From Syntrophomonadaceae bacterium (lineage in GTDB: Bacteria; Bacillota; Syntrophomonadia; Syntrophomonadales; Syntrophomonadaceae): a stretch of DNA of 64,000 nt. Every line of letters starts with the position of its first letter. The first letter of the stretch is position 1. Made by a program: the position numbers and the translations under genes. The notes below the pieces were generated by a model. It worked only from the letters and a program-made list of their open reading frames with translations. It was not told where the DNA came from and did not search any database. Below are positions 5,548 through 46,026 of this stretch, piece after piece. Location: the NCBI GenBank assembly GCA_035647815.1, contig DASRMR010000020.1, forward strand, positions 12,870 to 76,869, written 5' to 3'.

Positions 5548-5665
5548 GTAATCTTAAACAGGGATATAATCTCTTGCCAGAGCTTTTCAGCTATATATCT
5601 TGAAATTAAATTATGAGTAACTTAATAAATCGTCGTATAACGAACAGTATATACGGTAGCGTGAG

Positions 5666-5696
5666 AGGAGCTGAATATAATAATTATTCAGCTCCT
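5666..5696 (+). terminator. Hairpin terminator downstream of the ACT gene
   Basis: AGGAGCTGAATA-loop-TATTCAGCTCCT, a 12-bp perfect stem. The T-tract is weak. Confidence 0.5.
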
Positions 5697-5758
5697 ATTA
5701 GATTATTTATAAGTTAAAATATGATTAGTTAGTAAATCATCTAGCGGTGGAGGCTATT

Positions 5759-17210: not shown

Positions 17211-17293
17211 TTTTTAAATTATAGTAATAATCCAAAAAGTAAGTGAAGTCAATGCGACTATTAACTTACTTTTTGTTTTTAAGGAGGTTTATT

Positions 17294-18250
17294 GTGCGTA
17301 TAGCTATAGATACGATGGGTTCAGATCGAGGACCTCAGGAGATAATAGCTGGAGCTTTAAGATGGGTTGAGGGAAAAGAAAATAATATATTTTTAGTAGG
17401 TCCAATTCAAACCATACAGGAAGAATTAGAAAAATATGATTATGATTCTTCCCGAGTTAATATTGTTGAAGCTAATCAGGTTATTGAGATGAATGAATCG
17501 CCTGCTCTAGCCTTAAGAAGGAAAAAAGATGCCTCAATTGCAGTTGCAACCAAATTAGTGAAAGATGATATTGCTGATGCAGTTCTTTCCTGTGGTAGTA
17601 CAGGAGGACAGATGGCGGCTGCGATTTTCATCTTAGGTCGTATAAAAGGTATCCAAAGACCTCCTATTGTAGCAGATATTCCTAGAATTGATGATGGTTA
17701 TACTCTTTTAATGGATGTTGGTGCTAATGTTGACTGTAAAGCAGAACAACTATTGCAGTTTGCTTTATTAGGCAATGTATATAGTAAGAGTATATTAGGG
17801 GTAGATAATCCTCGTATTGCATTATTAAACAATGGCGAGGAAGAAAATAAAGGCAACAATCTAAGTTTAGAAACATATAATCTGTTACGAGAACAAAACG
17901 CTCTAAATTTCATAGGTAATATAGAAGGTCGAGATATACTAAACCCAATTGCTGATGTCATAATATGTGATGGCTTTGTAGGTAATGTAGTGCTTAAAAC
18001 TATCGAGGGTGTAGTTAGATTAATTGCAGAAGGGGTTAATAATGAAATAGGGAAAATACCTGACTTTTTCCATAAATTAGATTATTCTCAGGTAGGTGGA
18101 GCACCATTGCTAGGAGTGAGTGGAGTAAGTATCGTTTGCCATGGTAGTTCTAGTAGTGAAGCAGTTTATAACGGGTTGAATGTTGCCCAACAATGTCATG
18201 TTAATAAGTTGGTTTCTTTACAACAGGAGGAATTGCTTAAGTTAGTATAA
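17294..18250 (+). CDS. plsX: Phosphate acyltransferase PlsX
   Basis: (V)RIAIDTMGSDRGP N-terminus and GFVGNVVLKT motif. AAGGAGG precedes GTG 17294. Confidence 0.93.
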   Translation: MRIAIDTMGSDRGPQEIIAGALRWVEGKENNIFLVGPIQTIQEELEKYDYDSSRVNIVEANQVIEMNESPALALRRKKDASIAVATKLVKDDIADAVLSCGSTGGQMAAAIFILGRIKGIQRPPIVADIPRIDDGYTLLMDVGANVDCKAEQLLQFALLGNVYSKSILGVDNPRIALLNNGEEENKGNNLSLETYNLLREQNALNFIGNIEGRDILNPIADVIICDGFVGNVVLKTIEGVVRLIAEGVNNEIGKIPDFFHKLDYSQVGGAPLLGVSGVSIVCHGSSSSEAVYNGLNVAQQCHVNKLVSLQQEELLKLV

Positions 18251-18284
18251 ATGGTATTATAAAGGTAAAAAAGGAGGGATTTTA

Positions 18285-18533
18285 ATGAATGAATTTTTTA
18301 GTTTAGCTCAAAAATATTTAGCTGAACAGTTAAATATTGAAATTGAATTGATTACTATGGAGACTACATTTGAAGATATCAATGCGGATTCGATTGATGT
18401 AGTAGAAATGATCATGGCTTTGGAAGATACTTATGATGCTGAATTTCCCGAAGAAGACCTAGAAGGTTATCCTACCATGGGTGCTTTGATAACAGCTTTG
18501 TTTAATTATTTAGAACAGGTGAAAAATGAGTAA
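18285..18533 (+). CDS. acpP: Acyl carrier protein
   Basis: 82-aa acidic protein with the phosphopantetheine-site motif ADSIDVVEMIMALED and an AAGGAGG RBS. Confidence 0.85.
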   Translation: MNEFFSLAQKYLAEQLNIEIELITMETTFEDINADSIDVVEMIMALEDTYDAEFPEEDLEGYPTMGALITALFNYLEQVKNE

Positions 18534-19236
18534 CGATACTACCTTTGCCCGCAGTTTCTTAGAAGACAATAATTTACAATTTGTTGATGAGGAACTGATG
18601 CACATAGCACTTATGCATCCTTCCTATTCCCAAGAAAAACATGCAGTACATAGTAACCAGAGACTTGAATTTTTAGGTGATGCAGTCCTTAATTTTGTGG
18701 TGGCAGAATATTTATATACTAACTATACAGACCGAGCAGAAGGAGAACTAACTAAGATAAGGGCAAAGGTAGTTTGTGAAAAGGCTTTAGTAAATATTGC
18801 TCGCAATATAAATTTAGGTCGGTATTTACTCTTAGGTAAAGGCGAGGAAATGTCAGGGGGGCGTAAAAGAAAGTCAATTTTAGCTGACACTTTTGAGGCG
18901 GTAATAGGGGCTATTTACTTAGATCAGGGTTTTGAGGTTGTGAAGGCTTATATTATAAAACATATAGAAAAAAGTGTTAGAGAAGCTGCTAGTGGTAATT
19001 ATAATGATTATAAATCGCTCTTACAAGAATATGTGCAAGGTAAGCATGGTCAAAATGTGACTTATAACATTATAGAAGAAAGTGGACCAGCTCATGCCCG
19101 AAACTTTGTAGCAGGTGTATATTATGATAAAAAGTTAATTGCTACTGGATCTGGTAAAAGCAAAAAAGAAGCTGAGCAAGATGCTGCCGAACAAGTTCTA
19201 ACTAGAAATTTATTAGCTCATTTAGTAAAGGATTAG
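18526..19236 (+). CDS. rnc: Ribonuclease III
   Basis: RNase III signature NQRLEFLGDAVL, plus a C-terminal dsRBD (GPAHARNF...GSGKSKKEAEQDAA). Confidence 0.95.
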   Translation: MSNDTTFARSFLEDNNLQFVDEELMHIALMHPSYSQEKHAVHSNQRLEFLGDAVLNFVVAEYLYTNYTDRAEGELTKIRAKVVCEKALVNIARNINLGRYLLLGKGEEMSGGRKRKSILADTFEAVIGAIYLDQGFEVVKAYIIKHIEKSVREAASGNYNDYKSLLQEYVQGKHGQNVTYNIIEESGPAHARNFVAGVYYDKKLIATGSGKSKKEAEQDAAEQVLTRNLLAHLVKD

Positions 19237-19241
19237 GTGAA

Positions 19242-20333
19242 ATGAATAGACATATTAATATACCGATTTTTATTCCTCATTTAGGATGTCCATTTGATTG
19301 TATTTTTTGCAACCAGAAAAAAATTTCATCTACTATTAATCCACCTGAGCCATCTGATGTGGGGGAAATTATAGAAAGACATTTAAAAACTATTGCAGTA
19401 GATAGTGAAATAGAAGTAGCTTTTTTCGGAGGTAGTTTTACGGCAATTGATGAAGATTTACAAATCGCATATTTGGAGGCAGTAAAACCATATTTAAAAA
19501 GTGGAGATATAAGTTCGATTAGAATATCGACTAGACCAGATTTTATAGATAAATCGATATTAGAGCTTTTAAATCAATATGGAGTTAAGACTATTGAATT
19601 AGGAGTACAATCTTTAAGTGATGAGGTTTTAAAAAAATCATGCCGAGCTTATAAAAAAGATGATGTTTTTAAAGCTGTTCATCTAATAAAAGCGCATAAT
19701 TTTAATCTAGGTATACAACTTATGATAGGACTACCAGGTGATAATTATGAACTTGATATGTTGACAACTAAAGAGACTATAACATTATTACCCGATATGG
19801 TAAGGATTTATCCTACCCTAGTAATAAGAGATACTGACTTAGCTATGACATATGATAAAGGTTTATATGAGCCATTATCACTAGATGAAGCAGTAACTAT
19901 TACAAAACATATGTATCTACAATTTAGAGTATATGATATAAATGTGATTCGCATGGGGTTGTATCCTAGTGAAGATTTGCTAAGTGATGATACCCTGATA
20001 GCAGGTCCTTTTCATTCGGCATTTGGGGAATTAGTTATGCAGGAAATTTTTTATGACCAAGCCGAATGGCTAGTTGAATCGGTAAAAGATAAAGCTCATT
20101 TTACTAATAGATTGTATCTTTATGTTAATCCTCGAGATATATCTAAAATGATAGGCAATAAAAAACAGAATATAAGCAAACTAAAAAAGAGTTTGCAAAT
20201 AGAAGAGATAATCGTGAAAAGTTGGGATTCACTAGAACAAAATAGCATCGGCATAAGCGCCGATGCTATTTATCCTGAATTTATATTGACCAGGGAAGAG
20301 TATCTAGAAATATTGCCAGCTACTTTAGTTTAA
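19242..20333 (+). CDS. Radical SAM protein (ELP3-like family)
   Basis: CPFDCIFCNQ (CxxxCxxC) at the N-terminus and TIELGVQS. This gene is commonly found after rnc in Clostridia. Confidence 0.8.
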   Translation: MNRHINIPIFIPHLGCPFDCIFCNQKKISSTINPPEPSDVGEIIERHLKTIAVDSEIEVAFFGGSFTAIDEDLQIAYLEAVKPYLKSGDISSIRISTRPDFIDKSILELLNQYGVKTIELGVQSLSDEVLKKSCRAYKKDDVFKAVHLIKAHNFNLGIQLMIGLPGDNYELDMLTTKETITLLPDMVRIYPTLVIRDTDLAMTYDKGLYEPLSLDEAVTITKHMYLQFRVYDINVIRMGLYPSEDLLSDDTLIAGPFHSAFGELVMQEIFYDQAEWLVESVKDKAHFTNRLYLYVNPRDISKMIGNKKQNISKLKKSLQIEEIIVKSWDSLEQNSIGISADAIYPEFILTREEYLEILPATLV

Positions 20334-21376
20334 AATATTCTTAACCAGAATAAGGCAGGTTTTACCTTTTCAGGTGGTTCGATATTAACTGGCATATATT
20401 TACCAGACAGAGCCATAATCGCATAGGCGGTATCTATTACAGATGCCTTATTTTCTTCATTCATCCACCTAAAATAACCTGATGGATCTTGCAAACCTAT
20501 AAGATGAGTGCTTACATTTTTCTTTTTTATAGTCCAGTTAACTCCATCATGTTTTTCATCTGCAGCTATTAATGCCTGCCACACCCAGCTGTCAGTACTA
20601 GCATTAGAATTACTTCCAGCCCACCCAGAACTAAATCCACCATCATTTTGTTGAGAAGATTTTATATATTTTAAAGCTCTTTTTATAACAGTAGAGTTTT
20701 TAGGATCTTCACCTAGATTTATTAATACTTGTATAGCTACTGCAGTGTCATCGAGATCACTATCTAAACCTTGGTGCCAAGCAAAACCACCATCTTTATT
20801 TTGTTCTGCAATCAACCATTTTTTTGCTTTTTCGGAATTAGGAACTTCTTCTCTAACTGAGGTTAAGGCTAATATTGACCACATATGAGCATTAATAAAT
20901 CCTGCTTCATCAAACTTAATTTGGCTGAAATGTCCATTAGGTTTTTGCCAAGATTTTATTTTATTAGCTAATTGTTTTTTCTCTTCATCATAAGCATTAA
21001 CAGTGGACAATGCTAAAAGATGTCTAGCATAATCGTTAGTGCTTTCTAATTTATCCTTTTGTTTTACTAGATAATCTATGGGGTTTTGCCCGTTTTTCTT
21101 CCAACTGCTAGCCTGAACATCTTCTTCAGCAGCATTTAAAGCCATGACTACCCAAGCAGTTACAACATGATCACTTTCCTTATCTTCTTGATACCAAGGA
21201 AAACCACCATCATTATTTTGTATAGACTTTAAATAAGATACAGCTAGGTTGATATTTTGCTTATAAGGTTTCTCTGTAGCTAGAGCTTGAACAGGAACAA
21301 TCAAGTTCATTAGAAATACTAGTAAAAAAAACTGGGATAACCAGCGTTTTCTCTTCATTTTTTTCCTCCTAGTCAT
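20330..21376 (-). CDS. Secreted prenyltransferase/squalene-oxidase-repeat (alpha/alpha toroid) protein
   Basis: Signal peptide (LLVFLMNLIVPVQALA) and repeated Q-x2-DGGF motifs (QNNDGGFPW, QNKDGGFAW, QQNDGGFSS, QDPSGYF). Last gene of the riboswitch-controlled operon. Confidence 0.8.
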   Translation of the reverse strand: MTRRKKMKRKRWLSQFFLLVFLMNLIVPVQALATEKPYKQNINLAVSYLKSIQNNDGGFPWYQEDKESDHVVTAWVVMALNAAEEDVQASSWKKNGQNPIDYLVKQKDKLESTNDYARHLLALSTVNAYDEEKKQLANKIKSWQKPNGHFSQIKFDEAGFINAHMWSILALTSVREEVPNSEKAKKWLIAEQNKDGGFAWHQGLDSDLDDTAVAIQVLINLGEDPKNSTVIKRALKYIKSSQQNDGGFSSGWAGSNSNASTDSWVWQALIAADEKHDGVNWTIKKKNVSTHLIGLQDPSGYFRWMNEENKASVIDTAYAIMALSGKYMPVNIEPPEKVKPALFWLRIF

Positions 21377-21383
21377 TTATATA

Positions 21384-22457
21384 TTATTTCAAAGGTAATG
21401 GAGTAAGACCTTCAGCTAGTATAGCAATACTATATAAACCCCGAATATCACCAGGACTATTAATTAAAATATTAATAGCTTTGTTTAAAGCTAATTCATC
21501 AGTACCTATAATTAACCAAACAGGATTAGGATCACCTAAAGATTTGCCGTAAGCAGCGATCACTGCACTATTTGCCATTACTGTTCTGGCTACTTGTCCT
21601 TTATAGTTTAATAAGTCTAAACCTTGATCAGTAAAATGCACGCTAGTTCCGTTTTTTTGATAGCCATTATTTATATTGTTTACAGCACTGTTATTAGCTA
21701 ATTTTGGCCAAGTTCCAATAATGATCGTAGGTCCACTACTATCGATATTGTTACTTATTAAATTATTATCGACTCTAACTCCTCGGTTATTTAATGAAAC
21801 AGTCAGCTTTTGGGCTAAAGCTTGGCTATCTGTATCATATAAAATCTTTGTCGGGTTGATATTTCCTCTATAGCCATGCAGGAAAGGTTCAGGATAAGCT
21901 CCAATAATCGCATTATTAGTTGGGCCTGCACTCCACAAATGGTAATCCCAAAATATCTTATCACCAGCATTAAGCTTGTAATCTCGAAGTCCAGTATGGC
22001 TAGCTATTCCGTTGATATAAAAAAACCAATCAGATCGTTTCATACCTTGACGCATCTTAATTCCATTTATACTGCTAATGAAACTGTTACCATAACTAGT
22101 TTCTAAATCTAAATTATTTTGCATCAACTGTAAAAGAGTGTCATCAGAATTAAAATTGATGGCTTGATTAAAAACAGTTAGTTGTCCAAAATTCTGGCTT
22201 ATAGTTAAGTTTATCTGTTGATTGCTTTTCGGGGTTTTAGCAACAGGTTTTTCTAGTTCATTTTCATCTTCTATTGGAGTTTCGTCCTTAGTATCACTAT
22301 CAGTAGCTTCATCTTCAGATACTTCGGTAGATTCTTCTTGAGTTACTACTATTTGTTCTCCCTTATCTTCTACTAAAGAGGGAGGTGTTGATCCTGAGGC
22401 ACATCCCCCCAAGACCAACATACTGATAATTAAGACTATATTTATTAAACGCTTCAA
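21384..22457 (-). CDS. Lipoprotein with DUF4430 (transcobalamin-like C-terminal) domain
   Basis: Lipobox LVLGGC, an acidic linker, and a DUF4430-type core SSINGIKMRQG...DWFFYINGI...LNAGDKIFWDY. Confidence 0.7.
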   Translation of the reverse strand: MKRLINIVLIISMLVLGGCASGSTPPSLVEDKGEQIVVTQEESTEVSEDEATDSDTKDETPIEDENELEKPVAKTPKSNQQINLTISQNFGQLTVFNQAINFNSDDTLLQLMQNNLDLETSYGNSFISSINGIKMRQGMKRSDWFFYINGIASHTGLRDYKLNAGDKIFWDYHLWSAGPTNNAIIGAYPEPFLHGYRGNINPTKILYDTDSQALAQKLTVSLNNRGVRVDNNLISNNIDSSGPTIIIGTWPKLANNSAVNNINNGYQKNGTSVHFTDQGLDLLNYKGQVARTVMANSAVIAAYGKSLGDPNPVWLIIGTDELALNKAINILINSPGDIRGLYSIAILAEGLTPLPLK

Positions 22458-22488
22458 TCAATTGCCTCCCATTATTTTAGTATTAACT

Positions 22489-24261
22489 TTAAGCAGCAGC
22501 TTGGCTTTTGATCCAATTGAAAATTATTACTGCTGCCTCCGCACGAGTAATCGAATTAAGACCTTGGAAACTGCCATCCTCATAACCACTAATGATTTTT
22601 TCACTATAGGCCCAATTTACTGCAGATGTAGCCCACTCTGGTATATCTTTATAATCACTAATATCTACTACATTTGTAGTTATAGTAGGTTCTAGACTTA
22701 ACTTATATAAGATCATAGTTGCTTCATTACGGCTAAGTGGCTGTTCTGGTCTGAATGTACCATCTTCATAACCACTAATTAGTTCTGCTTGATAAAGGTT
22801 AGAAACTGCCGAATTAAACCAATCAGATGGGGATACATCACTAAACTTATCAAATTCTGCTGGGATACTGCCTGGCACTACTATCATCTGGTTTACTAAC
22901 TGGCTAAATTCAGCCCTTGTTACCGACCTAGCAGGTTCAAAGCCCTTATCACTACCACTTATCACACCTTGCCCTGCTAAAACCTCTACAGCCTCAGTAG
23001 CCCACTTATAAGAACTATCTATATCTGCAAAACTTTTCTTAGCAGGCTTTTCTATTACTGCAAACTTAGAAAAATGATCGGTTTCGAATAATACCCATCC
23101 AGTCTCTAAATCGATAATCCCAGGTATCTCTTCCCACTCATTGTTTTCTTCATCATAAAAAGCAGTAACAAGTTCTTCAGGATTGAAGTTTATACCTAGA
23201 TATAAAGGCATACTTATTTTTACCGGTTTATTAAAACTTAACCCCTTAGGACCCATTTCATAAACAGGGGATACCATTTTAAGTGGATATGAATTAGGTA
23301 AATCAACAGTTTGTCTTTCCGTAACGGTTAAGTTTGCTTCTTTATCTAAAGCTTCTTTAGGTATTAAGACTTTTACTTTTTCACCTTTATCAGTAATAAT
23401 ATTATCTTTAGTAATATCTATAAGTTGTTCTAACTTAAGTAAACTTTCCTTTAAACGCTCATCACGCTCTATGGCCTTATCTTTATCCATCTTTTTATCT
23501 AGGTTAAGGATAAGAACTTTTTCGTCTAAGTCCTTTAAGTTTTTGAAATCGTCTGTGTAATTATCAAAGATGTCTATAACTTCTTGAGCTTTTTCTTCTT
23601 TTTGATCCTTGATACTAATATCTACTCCGCCTTCTGATTTTCCACCATCTAATGTATAAATCCATTCTACAATATCCCCATCAGCCAAGCGATAACTAGC
23701 ACTAGATACGCCTAAAACAGAACCATTTACTTTATAAATCCATCCACTTAAAGGGTAGCCGGGTTTTTTCTCCTTAATACCGCCAATGCTTTCGATATAG
23801 CCAGCCCTATTAATGATTTCAATCTTATTTTCTCCGGTTAATCTTAAGGTAAGGTCTAAAACTGATTCACCTGCTATTATTTTATGTTTAGCTTTGTTTA
23901 ATATCGCGCCATCATCACCCTGAATAGAAAAGTACACATATCTTTCTTCTACACCGGTATCCCCACCTGGACTGCCAGGTTCACTAGGGTTTATCTCACT
24001 CAAGTTTATATCTATAGGTGCTTTATTACTTATACCTAGTCGTAAAAACTTAGCCTCGAGTGGAATGTTTTTAATAATATATTGGCCTTTAGAACTTGAT
24101 TTGATCTGCCCAATAGCTATTTTGTCATTTTCTGCACCTGTAAAAACATAGCCGATATTAGTATTCTTATCAGTTGTCCCAGTGAAATCAGCTGCTGATA
24201 CTAAGCCTGGGGCAATGCTAAGAATAAATAGCATTAGCAGGAATATTAATCTTTTTCTCAT
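22489..24261 (-). CDS. S-layer-homology (SLH) anchored protein with DUF4430-like domain
   Basis: Signal peptide and DUF4430-like core GWIYKVNGSVLGVSSASYRLADGDIVEWIY. Three C-terminal SLH repeats are present (FADID...WATEAV..., FSDVSPSDWF..., YKDIPEWATSAV...). Confidence 0.85.
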   Translation of the reverse strand: MRKRLIFLLMLFILSIAPGLVSAADFTGTTDKNTNIGYVFTGAENDKIAIGQIKSSSKGQYIIKNIPLEAKFLRLGISNKAPIDINLSEINPSEPGSPGGDTGVEERYVYFSIQGDDGAILNKAKHKIIAGESVLDLTLRLTGENKIEIINRAGYIESIGGIKEKKPGYPLSGWIYKVNGSVLGVSSASYRLADGDIVEWIYTLDGGKSEGGVDISIKDQKEEKAQEVIDIFDNYTDDFKNLKDLDEKVLILNLDKKMDKDKAIERDERLKESLLKLEQLIDITKDNIITDKGEKVKVLIPKEALDKEANLTVTERQTVDLPNSYPLKMVSPVYEMGPKGLSFNKPVKISMPLYLGINFNPEELVTAFYDEENNEWEEIPGIIDLETGWVLFETDHFSKFAVIEKPAKKSFADIDSSYKWATEAVEVLAGQGVISGSDKGFEPARSVTRAEFSQLVNQMIVVPGSIPAEFDKFSDVSPSDWFNSAVSNLYQAELISGYEDGTFRPEQPLSRNEATMILYKLSLEPTITTNVVDISDYKDIPEWATSAVNWAYSEKIISGYEDGSFQGLNSITRAEAAVIIFNWIKSQAAA

Positions 24262-24293
24262 TTACTTATCTACCCCTGTCAAATTTATATTTA

Positions 24294-25445
24294 CTAGAAC
24301 ATTATATTTAATTTATCACAGACTGGATTCATGCCATCTAGTGAGTCCCATAACATTATGTTTAGTTCGTCTACACCTGTTTTATTTAATCCGAATCTAA
24401 AGACAGAATCCTCATCAATATTTATATTTTGATAAAAATATCCGTGATTACTACCTTCCCAGCTGATTGCTAATAATTTAGTTTCACCAGCTATTAATTC
24501 TGCGGGAACTCCTATGTCGATATTTACTTCATCAACATTTATTTTTTTTGCACTTATTTTAAAACCTTCTTTTGTTGCTGTTATAGGATTTAGTTTATTA
24601 TGATATTTTCCACCATCATATTTCAAATCGGCTAGAGCCAAAAGAACAAAATAAGAAGTCATTTGATTAGATATACCATCATCCCAAACAGGATAAAATG
24701 AACCATCAGTTAATTGATATTGTTTCAAGGTTTCTACTGTTCCATCTATTAAATTAATATTATTAGCAATATAACCTTCAATAACTGCTGCAGTAGATTC
24801 TACAGAAGGTCCCCAGTTATCATATAATCCAGATGGATCATCCCTTTTGTTTTCGATATATGTTACTGCTTTTTCAATAGCATCTGTCATATCATCATCG
24901 CTAAACGATAAGGCAATCATTGCATGTGCAGTTGAATCGACATCTGCTCCCCATCCACTAATATCAAATCCGCCATCTGCATCTTGACTCCCCACTATAT
25001 AATCTATAGCGTCATCTTTTATATATATGGGGTCTTCTCCATTATTTCTAGCAAATTCCAAAGCTATTACAGACCAAATGGTGTTATTAAGTGAAGCATC
25101 GGCTTCATGTCTAAAAGCCCCATCCGTTTCCTGCATATTTACTAATGTAGTAATATTGTCATCTACACAAATACCTGCAGATATATCACCAATTATTCTT
25201 CTACTATAATCAGTTGGACTAGTTAAATTTCCACTTGGCACATACTTAAATGACAAATCTTGCCCTAGTGCTCTCGTACCGAAAACCTCCCATTCGTCTA
25301 GCTCTTTCTTATGGGCATAAAAGTTTTGCAGATCTGTTGTCATTGACTCTATTGTCTCTACTGAAGCATAAGCAGGAGTTCCTAGACTCATAATAGCGAA
25401 ACATATTAATATAAAAACCGATAATATTCTTTGGTTAAATTTCAT
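24294..25445 (-). CDS. Secreted prenyltransferase-like alpha/alpha toroid repeat protein with extra C-terminal beta domain
   Basis: Signal peptide (GTPAYA) and repeats QETDGAF, QDADGGFDISGWGADVDSTAHAMIAL and QLTDGSF. First gene after the cobalamin riboswitch. Confidence 0.75.
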   Translation of the reverse strand: MKFNQRILSVFILICFAIMSLGTPAYASVETIESMTTDLQNFYAHKKELDEWEVFGTRALGQDLSFKYVPSGNLTSPTDYSRRIIGDISAGICVDDNITTLVNMQETDGAFRHEADASLNNTIWSVIALEFARNNGEDPIYIKDDAIDYIVGSQDADGGFDISGWGADVDSTAHAMIALSFSDDDMTDAIEKAVTYIENKRDDPSGLYDNWGPSVESTAAVIEGYIANNINLIDGTVETLKQYQLTDGSFYPVWDDGISNQMTSYFVLLALADLKYDGGKYHNKLNPITATKEGFKISAKKINVDEVNIDIGVPAELIAGETKLLAISWEGSNHGYFYQNINIDEDSVFRFGLNKTGVDELNIMLWDSLDGMNPVCDKLNIMF

Positions 25446-25502
25446 TTATATACTTTCCTCCATCTAATTTTTCTTGTTATTTATTCCCACATCAAATTAC
25501 AC

Positions 25503-25542
25503 CTAAAAATAAAAACATGCCTAAACTAAGAAGTCTAGGCAT
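25503..25542 (-). terminator. Intrinsic terminator (expression platform of the cobalamin riboswitch)
   Basis: Minus-strand ATGCCTAGAC-TTCTTA-GTTTAGGCAT followed by GTTTTTATTTTT. It lies between the aptamer and the start of the 25445 gene. Confidence 0.8.
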
Positions 25543-25615
25543 AGGTCAGGCGCTCTACTCAACACCATTTATATTCCTCCTCCCTTCTTAATCCCCAGAA
25601 GTTAGTTTTATAAGT

Positions 25616-25788
25616 ATCTTACAGGCAGGTCTCCTGGCTTAAGTTCATCCTAGTCTCTGTACCTTCCCGGGCAAGCCCAGTGGTATAAAACAGATTTCGT
25701 CCCTATTACAGTAGGGGGTACTGCAGCGGATTTTACCGCTTTCCCTATTAAAGCAGGGCCTAATAATACGCCTTGCTACCAGTAAGAT
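25616..25788 (-). promoter_or_regulatory. Cobalamin (B12) riboswitch aptamer
   Basis: The minus strand reads ATCTTAC...TTAATAGGGAAAGCGGTAAAATCCGCTGCAGTACCCCCTACTGTAA...CCACTGGGCTTGCCCGGGAAGG...AGCCAGGAGACCTGCCTGTAAGAT. This gives the conserved core, the B12 box (AGCCAGGAGACCTGCC) and a closing P1 (ATCTTAC/GTAAGAT). Confidence 0.9.
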
Positions 25789-25979
25789 ATTTAATTATCC
25801 TAATAATACTAGGACAACTATTAAATGTCTATGTTTATAGGTGATTTGAGGATATTGCGGATAAAATTAAGATTAAACAGATTGGTGTAATTAAATAGCT
25901 TTTAATAGCTGACCGTGTTCCTTTATAAATGAAGGTATGGAAGAGGCTTTTGTATAATTAGTAAGAGTAGGTAAAAGGG

Positions 25980-26954
25980 GTGAACTTGGTGAGAAGAGAG
26001 ATATTAACTGAACTTTATAATCTAAAAGGTGAATTTATATCAGGTAATAGTTTAGCTGATTCATTAGGTGTTAGTAGAGTGGCAGTATGGAAACATATTG
26101 AAGCTTTAAAAAAAGAAGGATATGATATTACTGGAATATCTGGTAAGGGTTATAGTTTAAATGATTGGTTTAGTGTAATTAACCCGGATGAATTAGAATT
26201 ACAAAAGCAGACATCTAATTTGATTAAACAAGTTATGTTTTACCCAGAGGTCACTTCTACTAATGAAATAGGCAAGGAATTACTAGCTGATGGTAAGGCT
26301 AAAGAAGGGTTATTAATTATAGCAGCTAGGCAATTACAGGGTAGGGGTCGCTTAGGTCGTATTTGGGATTCTCCCCTAGGTGGTCTATGGTTTTCTTTAG
26401 TTATTAAACCGAATTTGCCCTTACATAAACTTCCTTTGCTATCTTTAGTTTTTGCCCTAGCTATAGCTAGGGCTTTAGATACATTTATAGATATTCCTAG
26501 TGAGATTAAATGGCCTAATGATGTATTTGTTGAAGGTAAAAAGATATCCGGAATCTTGTTAGAAGTTAGTGGACAGCTAGACAATATTGATTCAGTTGTA
26601 GTAGGTATGGGGATTAATATTAATATGTCAGCAGAAGATTTATCTATAGAAAACAGGGAAAGTGCTACATCTTTATGGCAGGTAATAGGTGAACAAATAC
26701 CTAGTAGTACAATTTTGCCTGTTGTTCTATCCTACATAGAAGAATATTATTATTTGTTTATTAATGAAGGTTTTGAACAAATTAGAGTTGAGTTTAAACA
26801 GAAATGTTTACATTTACATAAAGAAGTTAAGGTGCAAAGGGGAAGCCAAGTTGTTACTGGCATTAATACTGATATAGATAGCCAAGGCACCATGGTTTTA
26901 AAAACTGAAACTGGTATTGTTTCTATTACTACTGGTGATGTAGAAGTTATTTAA
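25980..26954 (+). CDS. birA: Bifunctional biotin--[acetyl-CoA-carboxylase] ligase / biotin operon repressor
   Basis: N-terminal wHTH (GNSLADSLGVSRVAVWKHIEALKKEGY) and the biotin-binding loop QGRGRLGRIWDSPLGGLWFS. Confidence 0.92.
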   Translation: MNLVRREILTELYNLKGEFISGNSLADSLGVSRVAVWKHIEALKKEGYDITGISGKGYSLNDWFSVINPDELELQKQTSNLIKQVMFYPEVTSTNEIGKELLADGKAKEGLLIIAARQLQGRGRLGRIWDSPLGGLWFSLVIKPNLPLHKLPLLSLVFALAIARALDTFIDIPSEIKWPNDVFVEGKKISGILLEVSGQLDNIDSVVVGMGININMSAEDLSIENRESATSLWQVIGEQIPSSTILPVVLSYIEEYYYLFINEGFEQIRVEFKQKCLHLHKEVKVQRGSQVVTGINTDIDSQGTMVLKTETGIVSITTGDVEVI

Positions 26955-26970
26955 TCTAGGGGGCTTAAGT

Positions 26971-29900
26971 GTGTATCTGAAAAAATTAGAATTAAAAGGT
27001 TTTAAGTCTTTTGCAGATAATACCGAGATATACCTCAACCAAGGTATAAATGTTATCGTAGGACCTAATGGATGTGGAAAAAGCAACTTAGTTGATGCTA
27101 TTAGGTGGGTTTTAGGAGAAGGCAATGTACGGCAATTACGAGGACAAAAAGGCGAAGATGTAATTTTTAATGGTACAGATAAAACTAGAGCCTTAAGTAT
27201 GGCTAGTGTTGAAATGACTATAGATAATACAGATAATGTCTTACCTGTAGACTACAGTGAGGTAAGTATAGCACGCAAGATTTTCCGGTCAGGAGGAAGC
27301 GAATTTATCTTAAATAAGTCCCAGGTAAGGATGAAGGACATTGGCAACTTATTTATGGGAACCGGTCTAGGCAAACAAGGTTATTCTATAATAAGTCAAG
27401 GTGAACTCGAACAAGTGCTTAATGGACAGCCTATCGATCGTCGTCTAATTTTAGAAGAAGCTTCTGGAGTTATTATACATAGGAAACAACGAGATGAAGT
27501 TAAAAAGAGGCTTTTAGAAACGGGTGATGATCTCTTACGATTAGCTGACATATTAACAGAGCTTAATCGACAACAAGATGATTTACATATTAAAGCCGTA
27601 AAGGCAGAGAAATATATGACATTATCTGAGGAGTCTTATGCAATTGAAAAGAAATTACTACATTTTGAAATGAGTAAATTATTAAAAGAATATACTGGCA
27701 AAACAAGAGAATTAGATATACGAAAAGATGAACTAATTACTATTAAGCGAGCTGAAGAAGAAAATCAATTTTTAGTTCAAGAAAGTGAAGGTTTTTTAGA
27801 GTTAACTAGAAGAGCAATAAGTGAACTAAAAGAAAAGATATACACCTTAAATATGAATAAAAATAACTTAGAAGGCGATATTAGGATTAGTGAAGAACGG
27901 ATTATTAATAATGAAGATAGAATGGCAGATTCCCAACATGATGCTGAGAAATATAGGGACATGTTAGCTAATATATCTAAAGAGGTGGAAGCTAGGCAAA
28001 ATGATTATGATACGGAAAGTTTGGCTTATCAGTCTAAAAAGGACGAAACTACTAATTATGCTAATGATTTGAATAGCTTAAAAGATATAATCGAGGACCT
28101 TAATAAAAAGTTTGAAGCTGAAAAGGAAAATATTTTCACCCATGTGGAAAATGAAGCCCAAATTAAAAACATTATTTTTGAAAAGGAAGAAGTTTTAAAA
28201 AGATTTAGGGAAAAAAGGGAACAATTAAACTTAAAAAAGGAAAATTTAGCTCAGAGCATTAATAATAATCGGATAAGTTCAACAGAACATAGTAATGAAA
28301 TTATAATTTTAGAAAAACAAATAAAAGAAGTGCGAAAAGAATTGGATGAATTATCTATAGAGCAGAACAATTATACTACAAGATTAAAAGAGATAGAAAA
28401 AACACGCAACCAATTAGAGAATGAAATTCGCATAGTTAATAACCGATTAGCAAATATAAGAGATAATGAAGAAAAACTAGTAGGTTATTCGTCTGCGGTG
28501 AAAAAAGTTTTTAGTTCGCTAGACAAATTACCTGGTGTAATGGGAATCGTCGGGGAGGTAATACGGGTACCGGACGGGTTAGAGTTAGCTATTGAAACTG
28601 CAGCAGGTAGAGGATTAGAAAACATTATTGTAGATAAACATACTAGTGCCCAAAATGTAATCGAATATTTGAAAAGTGTTCAAGGGGGCAGAGCTACTCT
28701 TTTACCTATAGATATGCTTAAAGTGCAAAAATTCCCCGAATCGATTTTAGATAAAATTAAAAACGAAGCTGGGGTTTTGGGTATTGCTTCTCGATTAGTT
28801 AATTTTGAGCCTAAATACGAGCGAGCTATTGAACATCTTTTAGGACGAGTTTTAATAGTAAAGGACATGGATACTGGTATAAGGTTATTTAGAAAAAACC
28901 GTTTGCCATTTAGAATAGTAACCTTAGAAGGTGACATTATTAATACTAGTGGGGCTATGACTGGTGGTAGTCGAAAGACACATAATACTTATAGTCCACT
29001 CCAGCGTAAAAGTGAAGAAAAAAAGTTGACTAAGTTGATGAATCAAGCTAATAAAGAACTTCAGGAATGTCAAAATAAGGTGGAAAAGCTTAGGACACAA
29101 TTAGCTAACCTAGGAAATGAACTTAGTAAGCTCAAAGATAGTATAAATGAAAAGGAATTCAGATTAGAGCTTTTAAATGGACAAAGGCGATGGCTTCAAA
29201 CCGAGTTAAATAACGCTGTTACAGAACAAGAAGTTGTTTTACTAAATATAGAAAACTTAAGTCGGGATATAATAGAATTAGATCGTGAAATAATCAGTTT
29301 ACAGGCTAATTTCGCTAAGATGCAGGAAAACAGTGAAATAATTTCTAATGAATTAGAAGTATTAAGAAATGAAATAGAAATAAAACGCCGGGATTATGAA
29401 GTAGGACAGGAAAGGTTATCATCTTATAATGATTATCTTACAGCTAAAGAAAAAGAGCTAGCAAGTATAAAAGATAGTGTAGATCAGTTTAAACAAGTTA
29501 AAAATTCTTATTATAAGTCGATGCAAGACGCGATAGAAGTAAAGACTAGATTAACTGAGGAGTTGAAAACAGAACAAGAAAGAATTGTTAGTTATAAAGG
29601 TGTTATTAATGAACAAAATCTAAAACTAGAAAATATAAGCTTAGATATTAATAATAAAGAGATGGTGGAAAAACAACAAACTAATCGTATTAAGGAATTA
29701 AAGCTGGTTTTAACACCATTACGAGATAAGATTAACCATCTAGAAAAATTTATTCATAGTAATGAAGTTAGTATAGCTCGTTTAGAAACCGAAATAGCTA
29801 CTCAAAAGCAGAAATGGCAGGATGTTTTCCAATGTGAATTGCCAGTAGATAATGAAATAGATTATACAACTAGTCAACTTAAAGCTCTTCGGATAAATCT

Positions 29901-30543
29901 AAACAAGCTGCAGCAAGAAATATCTGATATTGGGTTAGTAGATCCAGAATCTATAAAAGAATATGAAGAAATATCTGAACGAACAACTTTCTTAACTGCC
30001 CAATTTGATGATTTAACTAAAGGTAAGGAATCACTAGAAAAATTATTAGGAGAGACTGAAAATATAATGGCTCAAGAATTTATGCAGTTTTTCACTTTAG
30101 CAAACGAAAGTTTTAGTCAGACTTTTCGGGACATTTTTAGTGGTGGAGAAGCATTTTTAAGTTTAGATAGTGGTGAAGATCACTTGGAAAGAGGAGTTAA
30201 TATAGAGGTTAAAATGCCTGGCAAGAAGACCCAACAATTAAGTCTATTATCAGGTGGGGAGCGGGCCTTAACTTGTATAGCTTTTATATTTGCTATATTA
30301 AAACTTAAACCGGCTCCATTCTGTTTACTCGATGAAATAGATGCGGCCTTGGATGAAACTAACCTAGTAAGGTTTTCCGCTTTCCTAAAGAAGATGGCTG
30401 ATGATATGCAATTTATTATCATAACTCATCGTCAAACAACTATAGAATGTGGACAAAATATATTCGGTGTAACCATGCCTCAAGAAGGTATTTCAACAAT
30501 ATTAACGCTTGATTTGTCTGAAGCAGAAAGTATAGCAGGTTAG
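26971..30543 (+). CDS. smc: Chromosome partition protein Smc
   Basis: 1190 aa with LKGFKSF...GPNGCGKSN Walker A, long coiled coils, a hinge, the LSGGE signature and Walker B CLLDEIDAALD. Confidence 0.97.
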   Translation: MYLKKLELKGFKSFADNTEIYLNQGINVIVGPNGCGKSNLVDAIRWVLGEGNVRQLRGQKGEDVIFNGTDKTRALSMASVEMTIDNTDNVLPVDYSEVSIARKIFRSGGSEFILNKSQVRMKDIGNLFMGTGLGKQGYSIISQGELEQVLNGQPIDRRLILEEASGVIIHRKQRDEVKKRLLETGDDLLRLADILTELNRQQDDLHIKAVKAEKYMTLSEESYAIEKKLLHFEMSKLLKEYTGKTRELDIRKDELITIKRAEEENQFLVQESEGFLELTRRAISELKEKIYTLNMNKNNLEGDIRISEERIINNEDRMADSQHDAEKYRDMLANISKEVEARQNDYDTESLAYQSKKDETTNYANDLNSLKDIIEDLNKKFEAEKENIFTHVENEAQIKNIIFEKEEVLKRFREKREQLNLKKENLAQSINNNRISSTEHSNEIIILEKQIKEVRKELDELSIEQNNYTTRLKEIEKTRNQLENEIRIVNNRLANIRDNEEKLVGYSSAVKKVFSSLDKLPGVMGIVGEVIRVPDGLELAIETAAGRGLENIIVDKHTSAQNVIEYLKSVQGGRATLLPIDMLKVQKFPESILDKIKNEAGVLGIASRLVNFEPKYERAIEHLLGRVLIVKDMDTGIRLFRKNRLPFRIVTLEGDIINTSGAMTGGSRKTHNTYSPLQRKSEEKKLTKLMNQANKELQECQNKVEKLRTQLANLGNELSKLKDSINEKEFRLELLNGQRRWLQTELNNAVTEQEVVLLNIENLSRDIIELDREIISLQANFAKMQENSEIISNELEVLRNEIEIKRRDYEVGQERLSSYNDYLTAKEKELASIKDSVDQFKQVKNSYYKSMQDAIEVKTRLTEELKTEQERIVSYKGVINEQNLKLENISLDINNKEMVEKQQTNRIKELKLVLTPLRDKINHLEKFIHSNEVSIARLETEIATQKQKWQDVFQCELPVDNEIDYTTSQLKALRINLNKLQQEISDIGLVDPESIKEYEEISERTTFLTAQFDDLTKGKESLEKLLGETENIMAQEFMQFFTLANESFSQTFRDIFSGGEAFLSLDSGEDHLERGVNIEVKMPGKKTQQLSLLSGGERALTCIAFIFAILKLKPAPFCLLDEIDAALDETNLVRFSAFLKKMADDMQFIIITHRQTTIECGQNIFGVTMPQEGISTILTLDLSEAESIAG

Positions 30544-31674: not shown

Positions 31675-32469
31675 ATGGTTAAAATAGCAATTATAGGTGG
31701 TACGGGAGTATATGATCCCGACCTTTTAGATGATATAAGGGAAGTTGTTCAGGAAACTAAATATGGTTCTGTAAATGTTACTATAGGCAATTTTGAAGGG
31801 CAAGAAGTTGTTTTTATTCCTAGGCACGGTTCGAATCATAGTGTGCCACCACACTTAATAAATTATAGAGCTAATATTATGGCTTTGAAGGAGTTAGGAG
31901 TAGAAAATATTATTGCTACAGCAGCGGTAGGTTCAATTAATTTAGATTTAAAACCGGGTGATTTTGTATTAGCAGATCAATTTTTAGATTTTACTAAGGT
32001 AAGAAATCACACCTTTTTTGCAGGTGGAGATGCAGGGGTTACCCATTGTGATATGACTATTCCTTATTGTCCTCGGGTTAGGAAAGCTATAGAAGAGGCA
32101 GGAAAAGTGGAAAGCAAAAAAATACATAATGGAGGGGTCTATGTATGTACTGAAGGACCTCGTTTCGAGACGGCTGCTGAAATAGACATGTTTAAGATTT
32201 TAGGTGGAGATCTGATCGGTATGACTAGTGTTCCTGAAGTTACTTTAGCCAGGGAATTAGGCATCTGTTATGGTAATATTTCTATTGTAACTAATTTTGC
32301 AGCCGGCATTTCTTCGACTATATTGACTCATAGTGAGGTAGTTGAAAAGATGCAAACTACTATTGCTGATGTGCGCGTTCTGATAATGAATGCTATAAAA
32401 CACTTAGATAATGAAACTAGTTGTGATTGTGCGAAGATTTTAGACGAAACAGAGATGAAAAATGATTAG
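31675..32469 (+). CDS. mtnP: S-methyl-5'-thioadenosine phosphorylase
   Basis: KIAIIGGTG..., RHG..H..PP..INYRANI and MTxxPE motifs of the PNP/MTAP family. Confidence 0.85.
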   Translation: MVKIAIIGGTGVYDPDLLDDIREVVQETKYGSVNVTIGNFEGQEVVFIPRHGSNHSVPPHLINYRANIMALKELGVENIIATAAVGSINLDLKPGDFVLADQFLDFTKVRNHTFFAGGDAGVTHCDMTIPYCPRVRKAIEEAGKVESKKIHNGGVYVCTEGPRFETAAEIDMFKILGGDLIGMTSVPEVTLARELGICYGNISIVTNFAAGISSTILTHSEVVEKMQTTIADVRVLIMNAIKHLDNETSCDCAKILDETEMKND

Positions 32470-42356: not shown

Positions 42357-42374
42357 TCGTCAAGAGGTGGTTAG

Positions 42375-45084: not shown

Positions 45085-45125
45085 ATAAAACAAGGTTAAG
45101 GCGATAAATGTGGAGGTGTAGATGA

Positions 45126-46013: not shown

Positions 46014-46026
46014 AAAGGAGTTATAC

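Follow-up and report, generated by a model that had tools for sequence, protein, structure and literature searches.

A riboswitch-controlled operon for exported toroid and DUF4430 proteins in a Syntrophomonadaceae bacterium, probably the capture half of a corrinoid uptake system

Riboswitch leader and gene order

The operon lies on the minus strand of the window, by which we mean the whole 64 kb stretch of DNA analysed, and it begins with a leader whose aptamer is the sole Rfam match in that window. With cmscan the cobalamin riboswitch model RF00174 was placed on 25607-25798 (-) at full length (model positions 1-189 of 189), including the B12 box AGCCAGGAGACCTGCC. The score of 108.8 bits (E=2.5e-26) is well over the gathering score of 31.5 bits, so the B12 riboswitch claimed in a preliminary description of this DNA holds under the covariance model. 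The intrinsic terminator of the expression platform, previously placed at 25503-25542, was found by terminator scan, RNA folding and reading of the sequence at 25506-25543 (-), where a hairpin of 12 pairs with a 4-nt loop (25543-25516) is directly followed on its 3' side by the T-run TTTTTATTTT. Directly 5' of the aptamer a consensus scan gave a promoter-like -35/-10 pair, TAGACA and TATTAT separated by 17 nt (25803-25831 (-), 10/12 matches), which is a pattern match only, in a region where promoter-like sites are not above those of shuffled sequence. In alignment the leader is closely similar to those of two complete ECF operons, in the related loci L083 and L085, and is orthologous to them; the same cobalamin riboswitch stands ahead of homologous operons in 16 of the 18 related loci tested. 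The riboswitch is predicted to be an OFF switch for the operon.

After the terminator follow four tightly packed minus-strand ORFs, separated by gaps of 32, 31 and 7 nt, in the order toroid protein P1, DUF4430-SLH protein P2, DUF4430 lipoprotein P3 and second toroid protein P4. It had been claimed that all four products are exported, and this is what their N-termini indicate, with signal peptides on P1, P2 and P4 and a lipobox on P3. The 3' end of P4 overlaps by 4 nt with a convergent radical-SAM gene. That the operon is without transporter genes also agrees with our searches, since a phmmer search of the window with ECF T, AA and S seeds yielded no homologue of T or S. The ECF ATPase seed matched only an ABC_tran protein at 44059-45084, which is part of an unrelated solute ABC cluster.

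Toroid and DUF4430 proteins

P4 (20330-21376 (-), 348 aa) is a secreted single-domain alpha/alpha-toroid built of QW-type repeats, without an anchor of its own, with the motif DLDDTA at residue 207 and a signal-peptide cleavage site that we read from the sequence between VPVQALA and T. Pfam gave Prenyltrans at 62.2 bits (cut-off 26.5), SQHop_cyclase_C at 50.3, SQHop_cyclase_N at 36.5 and TED_complement at 28.9, the sequence matches in the PDB are squalene-hopene cyclases, and the toroid preceding EcfT in L085 is 66% identical. In P1 (24294-25445 (-), 383 aa), cleaved by the same kind of reading between SLGTPAYA and S, the secreted toroid (residues ~30-285) is followed by a unique C-terminal domain of ~100 aa, and DVDSTA is found where P4 has DLDDTA. 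Its Pfam matches are weak, Prenyltrans reaching 20.9 bits, under the cut-off of 26.5, and SQHop being weak as well. Despite this sub-threshold score P1 clearly belongs to the toroid family of P4, judging from the homology of the two (E=2.8e-9); it is also 37% identical (E=1e-37) to the N-terminal toroid of a fused 834-aa protein from locus L014.

P2 (22489-24261 (-), 590 aa) is a secreted, cell-wall-anchored protein with a cleavage site read between APGLVSA and A, a small N-terminal domain, DUF4430 at residues 131-203 (44.3 bits), a ZU5-like middle part at ~215-405 (ZU5, 24.9 bits) and three SLH repeats at ~410-590 (139.5 bits). Over residues 328-823 the fused L014 protein aligns collinearly with P2 (E=2e-53). 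P3 (21384-22457 (-), 357 aa; identical to NCBI HZK43261.1) is a lipoprotein with Cys19 in the lipobox LGG-C, the cysteine being invariant in 23 homologues. An acidic disordered tether of ~55 residues leads to DUF4430 (~80-175; 62.5 bits) and then to a conserved alpha/beta C-terminal domain (~180-357) which carries the motif YPEPFLHGYRG and has its structural matches in BcsB and GH115-type domains. The Pfam scores of P2 and P3 bear out the domains assigned to them before, a DUF4430 lipoprotein and a DUF4430 protein with three SLH repeats. The sequence of P3 was recovered identical in at least three separate sequencing runs (five contigs in total).

The preliminary description had further proposed that the operon supplies the two halves of transcobalamin as separate polypeptides, and had called for a structural comparison with such proteins, of which the DUF4430 half stands and the toroid half only partly so. 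The AF2 model of P3 (pLDDT 83.6) gave Foldseek matches to transcobalamin (7qbg), intrinsic factor (2pmv and 3kq4), haptocorrin (4kki) and a DUF4430 structure (3u7z). The DUF4430 domain of the model overlays the beta domains of these B12 carriers, with E=1.9e-4 for transcobalamin, 8e-4 for intrinsic factor and an rmsd of 2.4 A over 104 columns for haptocorrin. As to the toroids, Pfam found no PF01122 on either, nor any sequence-level kinship to the transcobalamin alpha domain, and the matches of a toroid profile search were squalene-hopene cyclases, prenyltransferases and complement TED, not transcobalamin, intrinsic factor or haptocorrin. By sequence the toroids are thus of the squalene-hopene cyclase/prenyltransferase beta-subunit type, and the likeness to the transcobalamin alpha domain is at the level of fold only. 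Even there the resemblance of P4 to intrinsic factor is weak, because the sole P4 model from which these structure matches come is poor (pLDDT 55).

ECF-CbrT genes in related loci and on a second contig

Among the 75 related loci with enough downstream sequence, 73 have the gene for the P3-family lipoprotein directly upstream of EcfT, which is followed by a fused EcfAA', and a toroid and a CbrT-like S component are also present. In the closest relatives (53-66% identity) the order is big DUF4430, lipoprotein, toroid, T, AA, S. The S components of these loci match CbrT of L. delbrueckii (PDB 6fnp_A) with E=1e-13 to 9e-15, and near two of the loci, L001 and L004, genes for CobA/BtuR, CbiZ and CbiM were found. 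Fusions are of two kinds: S component and toroid form one ORF in 40 actinobacterial loci (checked with Pfam), while in L014 and other loci a single toroid-DUF4430-middle-SLH chain is collinear with P1 plus P2, its domain order being the N-to-C order of transcobalamin. Operons without ECF genes recur in the window, in L020 and in L024, and that of L020 likewise consists of four genes standing on their own, with genomic surroundings unrelated to those here.

A transporter elsewhere in the genome had been suggested as something to look for, and a candidate was indeed found. HZK43524.1, which shares the accession series of P3 and the same SRA series, sits in an operon made up of a cobalamin riboswitch, a DUF4430 lipoprotein, EcfT, EcfAA' and a CbrT-like S component (E=9e-15 against CbrT). 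Downstream of this operon the genes are syntenic with those of the complete loci L083 and L085. This riboswitch-controlled ECF-CbrT operon appears to lie on another contig of the same MAG, judging from accession series and shared samples, a binning error being possible. With a window operon that has no transporter and a second riboswitch-controlled ECF operon elsewhere, what was one operon in an ancestor seems to have become two.

Proposed corrinoid capture and its relation to known systems

Within a corrinoid uptake system of the ECF-CbrT type, the operon probably encodes the half that captures the ligand outside the cell, the transporter being provided in trans. At high intracellular cobalamin the vitamin would bind the leader aptamer, the terminator would form and the operon would be off, while under scarcity all four proteins would be made and exported. 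They could then form two transcobalamin-like modules, each of one toroid and one DUF4430 beta domain clamping the corrinoid between them. The SLH repeats of P2 would fix P1 and P2 in the cell wall, and the lipid anchor of P3, with its long flexible tether, would keep P3 and P4 at the membrane. A corrinoid caught at the wall would pass to the membrane-proximal pair and from there to the CbrT-like S component of the ECF transporter, supplied, together with a further DUF4430 lipoprotein, from the second riboswitch operon on the other contig. We infer that the proteins bind corrinoids; the P1:P2 and P3:P4 heterodimers and the direction of the relay are suggested by gene order and fusions only. There is one anchor per proposed pair, SLH on P2 and lipid on P3, which we count in favor of two capture modules. 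The extracellular capture and hand-off of corrinoids put forward earlier is supported by the genes that surround more than 80 related loci, by the riboswitch shared with most of the relatives tested, by the fusion of components and by the fold of the P3 DUF4430 domain.

The toroids could instead be extracellular enzymes, terpene-cyclase/prenyltransferase-like (class II) or corrinoid-modifying, to which the DUF4430 proteins deliver substrate. Their best sequence and structure matches are cyclases, and DLDDTA in P4 and DVDSTA in P1 stand where squalene-hopene cyclases have their catalytic DxDDTA motif, with D207, D209 and T211 invariant in an alignment of 16 toroids (all but one from Bacillota loci). 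However, the D.D.TA motif is kept in just 26 of the 93 toroid ORFs of related loci, each protein has a single toroid where cyclases have a two-domain architecture, and the signal peptides of P1 and P4 would take them out of the cell, where neither isoprenoid diphosphate nor squalene is expected. Together with the toroid fusions, in which the partner is an S component or a beta domain of the B12 type and which agree with binding and hand-off, this makes an enzymatic role quite improbable. That the ligand is heme or another tetrapyrrole and not a corrinoid, as proposed for lsa1836-1840 of L. sakei, draws on the deletion and over-expression of that ECF operon (Lsa1839 beta-like, Lsa1840 alpha-like), which is reported to have altered heme-sensor output and 57Fe-hemin content (10.1101/864751). 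We regard it as very improbable here: the riboswitches that control the window operon and 16 of 18 relatives are cobalamin riboswitches, the partner S components are homologous to an experimentally characterised B12 transporter, B12 salvage genes adjoin related loci, and the DUF4430 fold matches B12-binding beta domains.

Surface hoarding of corrinoids, withheld from competitors or stored for and shared with syntrophic partners without a dedicated importer, would account for an operon without transporter genes, and it would suit the recurrence of such operons, the wall anchoring through SLH that keeps binders distant from the membrane and the BtuG-type piracy known in Bacteroides (PMC13616437). 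It is nevertheless unlikely, since the capture genes of the window are orthologous to genes inside the ECF operons of its nearest relatives, an ECF-CbrT operon with the same kind of riboswitch is found in apparently the same MAG, and the toroid-S fusions point to direct delivery into a transporter. The window operon might also be a non-functional remnant of a rearrangement that parted the ECF genes of an ancestral operon from its 5' half: its leader and genes match the 5' portion, leader included, of the complete operons in L085 and L083, and it ends abruptly against a convergent housekeeping gene. Yet leader and terminator are intact, as are the four ORFs, which keep export signals and conserved residues; identical P3 sequences came from separate runs, and L020 has its own stand-alone operon, all of which renders loss of function very unlikely.

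The capture system favored here resembles transcobalamin, intrinsic factor and haptocorrin in combining an alpha/alpha barrel with a small beta domain, and the fused bacterial relatives keep the order toroid then DUF4430, but in the window each half is a polypeptide of its own, the toroid belongs to the cyclase/prenyltransferase type with QW repeats and the bacterial proteins have extra SLH, ZU5-like and BcsB-like alpha/beta domains. In the Isd heme relay of Staphylococcus aureus wall-anchored receptors pass the ligand to a membrane lipoprotein and on to a membrane transporter, the same layered logic as proposed here, by analogy and not by homology; Isd relies on NEAT domains and sortase anchoring, takes heme as ligand and is regulated by Fur. 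The Bacteroides surface proteins, the beta-propeller BtuG and the domains of BtuH and BtuJ, have folds unrelated to those of the window proteins. They likewise form a riboswitch-regulated multi-protein surface system for cobamide capture feeding a transporter (PMC13616437; mBio 2022, PMC8941943), but as outer-membrane lipoproteins serving the TonB-dependent BtuB, while the window suggests a monoderm-type envelope and an ECF transporter. ECF-CbrT itself is the vitamin B12 importer of Lactobacillus delbrueckii (PDB 6FNP; eLife 2018, PMC5997447), with cobalamin and cobinamide as substrate class and homologous S components linked to the present family (E=9e-15 in apparently the same MAG); it was characterised without an extracellular accessory protein, whereas the window holds accessory proteins only and no S, T or A.

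Among the closest known systems is the L. sakei locus, subject of the sole experimental study of a homologous locus, for which the idea of split transcobalamin alpha and beta parts with an ECF transporter has been published with heme as proposed substrate, and for which uptake of heme, not B12, is reported (Verplaetse et al., bioRxiv 10.1101/864751). Both loci combine one type of exported DUF4430/transcobalamin-beta-like protein with an exported prenyltransferase-like toroid protein, and each has been read as a split transcobalamin that would pick up a tetrapyrrole-type ligand extracellularly and hand it over to an ECF S component. The L. sakei locus has one pair, inside the ECF operon, and neither riboswitch nor SLH anchor is described in the accessible part of the preprint; the window has two proposed pairs, one SLH-anchored and one lipid-anchored, under a cobalamin riboswitch, and the transporter genes appear to lie in a separate operon outside it. 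The novelty implied by the earlier statement that such systems are biochemically uncharacterised was overstated, with the split transcobalamin and ECF idea already in print (10.1101/864751). This kind of surface system is widespread, with one earlier mention in the literature, and its gene family is very common; the operon in the window is unusual in lacking transporter genes, which seem to lie in a second riboswitch-controlled operon of the same MAG.

The riboswitch operon and its genomic surroundings

The four-gene operon is preceded by a cobalamin riboswitch (Rfam RF00174) at 25607-25798 on the minus strand. The aptamer is full length, covering model positions 1-189 of 189 with no truncation, and is the sole Rfam match at gathering threshold within the 64-kb window. 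Its score with the covariance model, 108.8 bits against a gathering score of 31.5 (E=2.5e-26), confirms the riboswitch assignment made in the preliminary description. A promoter-like pair (25831-25803) is situated directly upstream of the riboswitch. Between the aptamer and the start of the first gene there is a strong intrinsic terminator stem (25543-25516; 12 pairs and a 4-nt loop, followed by the T-run TTTTTATTTT), a predicted expression platform that would be able to switch the genes off, which is kept in the leaders of the two nearest related loci, L085 and L083. The start codon of the first gene lies about 60 nt past the terminator and its ATG is preceded by a GGAGGA ribosome-binding site, while the gaps between the four ORFs are 32, 31 and 7 nt. 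Export signals can be read straight from the sequence of all four proteins (P1-P4, in gene order). The earlier account of this region as a riboswitch with four genes for exported proteins was thus correct in coordinates and description.

It had also been stated that no transporter genes are present in the operon, and indeed none were found: genes for EcfT, EcfA/A' and a CbrT-like S component are all missing from it. BtuFCD or an ECF transporter was sought in the whole window as well, and an unrelated solute ABC cluster (41130-45084) alone turned up. By Pfam families, the stretch 41130-47034 consists of SBP_bac_8, two BPD_transp_1 permeases and an ABC_tran ATPase, then a nucleoside hydrolase and a phosphotransferase, with no tie to B12. 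The same is true of 31675-33496, where a PNP_UDP_1-family phosphorylase adjoins an IF-2B-family protein. The minus-strand operon breaks up a plus-strand gene block (17243-20333 and 25980-30543). On one flank three plsX-, acpP- and rnc-like ORFs, recognized from translations only, are followed by a Pfam-confirmed radical-SAM gene, which overlaps the last ORF of the operon convergently by 4 nt. The other flank carries a Pfam-confirmed birA-like gene and an ORF whose translation looks like smc.

Domains of the four proteins and their likeness to the transcobalamin family

P1 (24294-25445, minus strand) is a diverged paralogue of the toroid family, extended at its C-terminus by a unique domain of about 100 residues. 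It scores under the Pfam cut-offs for the toroid families (20.9 and 18.1 bits; cut-offs about 26) and is still homologous to them, with E=1e-37 against the toroid of the related locus L014 and 2.8e-9 against P4, the second toroid protein of the operon. P2 (22489-24261, minus strand) consists of a DUF4430 domain (PF14478, 44.3 bits; cut-off 23.8), a ZU5-like middle domain and three SLH repeats (PF00395, three matched stretches, 139.5 bits; cut-off 20.8). The equivalents of P1 and P2 form a single polypeptide in several Bacillota relatives, and fusions of a toroid followed by DUF4430 are present in L014, L004 and L069. The 834-aa protein of L014 has a toroid (approximately residues 51-318), DUF4430 (372-443), a middle domain and SLH; P1 residues 6-231 align with its residues 20-250 (37% identity, E=1e-37) and P2 residues 91-584 with its residues 328-823 (E=2e-53). 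This is the same order, from N to C terminus, as in transcobalamin, where a helical barrel is followed by a beta domain. In the window the toroid and the beta domain are not one chain, as they are encoded by separate genes with a signal peptide each. A frameshift as the source of the split between P1 and P2 was considered and rejected, because a separate signal peptide and a unique terminal domain are present in each of them. The same split is found in Thermosyntropha lipolytica (L010) and in L020, and it is therefore no sequencing artefact.

P3 (21384-22457, minus strand) is a lipoprotein with a DUF4430 domain (PF14478, 62.5 bits; cut-off 23.8) and, C-terminal to it, a conserved domain of about 175 residues. 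Its N-terminus reads MKRLINIVLIISMLVLGG followed by C, a signal peptide with a terminal lipobox; across 23 P3 homologues Cys19 never varies and G18 is at least 90% conserved. An AlphaFold2 (AF2) model built from the 23-homologue alignment has a mean pLDDT of 83.6, with values above 90 in both folded domains, and predicts a disordered acidic tether at residues 20-75. Searched by sequence against the PDB, either alone or as a 23-sequence profile, P3 gave no match. Its tie to transcobalamin (TC), intrinsic factor (IF) and haptocorrin (HC) is visible at the structure level only: with Foldseek the modelled DUF4430 domain matched TC 7qbg_C (E=1.9e-4), IF 2pmv_A (E=8e-4) and 3kq4, and HC 4kki (rmsd 2.4 Å over 104 columns), in addition to the structural-genomics DUF4430 entry 3u7z (TM 0.69, normalised on target). 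The preliminary description had seen in this operon the two halves of a transcobalamin as separate polypeptides. Because of these matches of the P3 model, the analogy is structurally supported for the beta half. For the C-terminal domain of the model the structural resemblance is to alpha/beta domains of BcsB and GH115; it may serve for docking on the ECF module. This conserved alpha/beta domain (residues about 180-357, window 21384-21920), with an invariant YPEPF-type motif, is present throughout the family of lipoproteins encoded next to EcfT.

The alpha half of the analogy is less secure. P4 (20330-21376, minus strand) is an alpha/alpha toroid of the prenyltransferase / squalene-hopene-cyclase (SHC) repeat class, matching Prenyltrans (PF00432) with 62.2 bits, SQHop_cyclase_C with 50.3 and SQHop_cyclase_N with 36.5 (PF13243, PF13249; cut-offs about 26), and its matches in the PDB by sequence are squalene-hopene cyclases, with E down to 2e-13. 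Neither P1 nor P4 matched Cobalamin_bind (PF01122) at E<=0.1 in Pfam. A profile of 16 toroid homologues finds SHC, prenyltransferase beta subunits and complement TED domains in the PDB, with TC, IF and HC absent among the best 60 of 73 matches (E<=10). At the level of sequence, as judged from Pfam and from the toroid profile against the PDB, the helical domains of P1 and P4 thus have no homology to the alpha domain of TC/IF/HC, and the half they were taken to represent does not belong to the TC family by this measure. In the structural comparison a single-sequence AF2 model of P4 (pLDDT just 54.9) had an SHC-like protein ahead of IF, of which 3kq4_A ranked second and 2pmv_A fourth in Foldseek; with TM values of 0.43-0.47 and rmsd of about 9 Å on so poor a model, the likeness of P4 to IF is suggestive only.

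The cyclase acid motif DxDDTA appears in P4 as DLDDTA (residue 207) and in P1 as a partial DVDSTA (residue 168). Residues D207, D209 and T211 never vary among the 16 toroid homologues in the alignment, which with one exception come from Bacillota loci. Across all related loci just 26 of 93 toroid ORFs keep D.D.TA, and the motif was accordingly rejected as an enzyme mark of the whole toroid family.

Coupling to ECF transporters in relatives and, probably, in trans

Relatives of P3 are numerous: at least 571 were picked up when one genome for each GTDB species was scanned with a degenerate pattern, and an exhaustive HMMER search yielded 710 clusters (50% identity) at E<=1e-10. A tblastn search of plasmids with P3 returned one partial match, in Brevibacillus. 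To survey gene context, ORFs were called in 82 loci from Bacillota, Solirubrobacterales and Thermoleophilia, and Dehalococcoidia, and labelled with phmmer seeds. The canonical order is an optional big DUF4430-SLH protein, the DUF4430 lipoprotein, EcfT, fused EcfAA', an optional toroid, often with SLH, and the S component. EcfT lies directly 3' of the lipoprotein gene in 73 of the 75 loci whose downstream sequence is long enough (70 found by script, together with L030, L032 and L041, where EcfT was masked by over-extended ORF calls), the only true exceptions being L020 and L024. By sequence the S component is a homologue of CbrT (6fnp_A, E=1.3e-13), a B12 S component characterised by experiment. 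In 40 actinobacterial loci it forms the N-terminal part of one ORF with a C-terminal toroid, which was confirmed by Pfam for the 605-aa protein of L018 (13343-15160); other examples are L021, L026 and L031. Such a fusion argues that the toroid works physically at the transporter, and no description of this architecture was found in the literature searched.

Of 18 related loci scanned, 16 have a cobalamin riboswitch ahead of the operon. None was detected at gathering threshold in the Dehalococcoidia loci L076 and L079, which carry homologues of the DUF4430 lipoprotein and the ECF genes, and regulation by a riboswitch is therefore not universal. Genes for CobA/BtuR, CbiZ and CbiM are found near the operons in L001 and L004. 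In L004 there are separate cobalamin riboswitches at 369-546 and 1999-2262, of which one stands ahead of cobA and the other ahead of the genes for capture and ECF transport, while in Dethiobacter alkaliphilus (L069) two stand in tandem (5622-5813 and 5977-6160) ahead of one homologous operon. In L076 a Moco riboswitch was seen about 1.3 kb 3' of the S gene, ahead of another ATPase-like ORF.

In the nearest relatives, L085 and L083, whose homologues are 53% identical to P3 and 55-66% to P4, one operon contains the leader, a big DUF4430 protein, the lipoprotein, the toroid, EcfT, EcfAA' and S. Unlike these, the window operon ends after the toroid gene. The transporter was also to be located elsewhere in the genome, and when the L085 S component was used as a query, the relevant match was HZK43524.1 (62% identity). 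P3 itself is 100% identical to HZK43261.1, a protein of a Syntrophomonadaceae MAG; the two accessions belong to the same series, 263 numbers apart, and to the same SRA run series (SRR56788xx), and the operon of HZK43524.1 appears to belong to the same MAG as the window. This second operon has its own cobalamin riboswitch (locus L091, 1092-1274, 109.9 bits) and encodes a DUF4430 lipoprotein paralogue of 318 aa (34% identical to P3, lipobox LSGC), EcfT, fused EcfAA' and S, the last matching 6fnp_A at E=8.7e-15. Genes for TatA, a methyltransferase, Lactamase_B, Smr and a PAS protein follow downstream, a synteny shared with the L083 and L085 operons.

P3 and P4 are orthologous to the lipoprotein and toroid that precede EcfT, EcfAA' and S in the ECF-CbrT operon of L085. 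Identity to L085 is at the level of orthologues for all components (P3 53%, P4 66%, EcfT 55%, EcfAA' 55%, S 62%) with the exception of the extra lipoprotein (33%). A close alignment, which takes in the expression platform and terminator, shows the window leader to be orthologous to those of L085 and L083; the leader of the separate ECF operon has diverged further. Read most simply, this points to the splitting of one ancestral operon into a capture operon, now in the window, where the P1/P2 pair was gained, and a transporter operon with another lipoprotein, each half being under its own cobalamin riboswitch.

Probable capture and relay of corrinoids

We consider it probable that under B12 limitation the cell produces two exported transcobalamin-like binding modules, from which corrinoid is relayed inward. 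P1 (toroid) and P2 (DUF4430) would reside in the wall, held by the SLH repeats of P2, and P3 (DUF4430) and P4 (toroid) would be kept at the membrane by the lipid anchor of P3 with its tether of about 55 residues; corrinoid would then pass to the CbrT-like S component of the ECF transporter encoded in trans. Each proposed pair has exactly one anchor and its members are adjacent genes. Ligand binding, pairing and direction of transfer are what we infer here, next to the observed regulatory element, export signals, domains, beta-domain fold, genomic coupling and fusions. The earlier interpretation of the operon as a corrinoid capture and hand-off system is supported by the ECF-CbrT gene context, the riboswitches in relatives and the fusions.

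Several other explanations fit less well. The ligand could be heme, as the data from L. sakei suggest: there a split exported transcobalamin alpha/beta pair feeding an ECF transporter (lsa1836-1840) was already proposed from HHpred, homology modelling and the heme phenotype of operon deletion and over-expression (10.1101/864751). The toroids might act as enzymes, in accordance with the DxDDTA-like motif, which is DLDDTA in P4 and partial in P1. Yet each protein has a single toroid, unlike the two-toroid architecture of cyclases, both toroid proteins carry signal peptides, and NCBIfam cyclase models score far under their cut-offs (55.6 against 322.7). It could also be supposed that corrinoids are hoarded at the surface with no import, or that the window operon is a decaying fragment. 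All four explanations account less well than capture and relay for the riboswitch, the fusions and the intact ORFs.

The L. sakei proposal also means that the novelty attributed to this system in the preliminary description was too strong. Since the combination of a split pair and an ECF transporter was published before, and the literature searched contained no biochemical study of whether bacterial DUF4430 or toroid proteins bind corrinoids, the window operon is a variant of a known, uncharacterised kind and not the first of it. ECF-CbrT was characterised without accessory proteins (PMC5997447), and a 2026 review calls the wall-associated cobamide binders of Gram-positives "entirely uncharacterized" (PMC13616437). 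Specific to the window are the two tiers, the anchoring by both SLH and lipid, and the encoding of the transporter elsewhere, under a riboswitch of its own. As capture and transport are genetically apart, with one pair anchored in the wall and one at the membrane, each layer is therefore testable on its own.

The system, which is common, coherent and directly testable, touches the acknowledged gap of how thick-walled bacteria lacking an outer membrane scavenge picomolar corrinoids, and the P3 family provides a concrete, widespread candidate of clear, testable architecture. The structural link from bacterial proteins to the animal B12 carrier family bears on the origin of that family. Syntrophomonadaceae live in obligate syntrophy, in which the exchange of cofactors is probably important for them. 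A broader reading, which we put forward only tentatively, is that transcobalamin-like binders of monoderm-type bacteria, composed of a QW-repeat toroid and a DUF4430 beta domain, form a wall-to-membrane corrinoid relay loading ECF-CbrT, which would be for B12 what the Isd relay is for heme. These binders would be spread widely in Bacillota, Actinomycetota and Dehalococcoidia as separate proteins, fused chains or fusions to the transporter, with the fused forms being kin or ancestors of TC/IF/HC and the capture layer able to stand as an independent riboswitch unit acting in trans.

Riboswitch-controlled capture operons with no adjacent ECF T or S genes were also seen in L020 (1-6314) and L024 (2252-13221). 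L020 repeats the order of four genes seen in the window, though its surroundings are unrelated and PBP1 and subtilase genes come next. The L024 operon, which encodes among others a 2784-aa protein with toroid domains, has an ORF with a match to the ATPase seed immediately upstream of its riboswitch.
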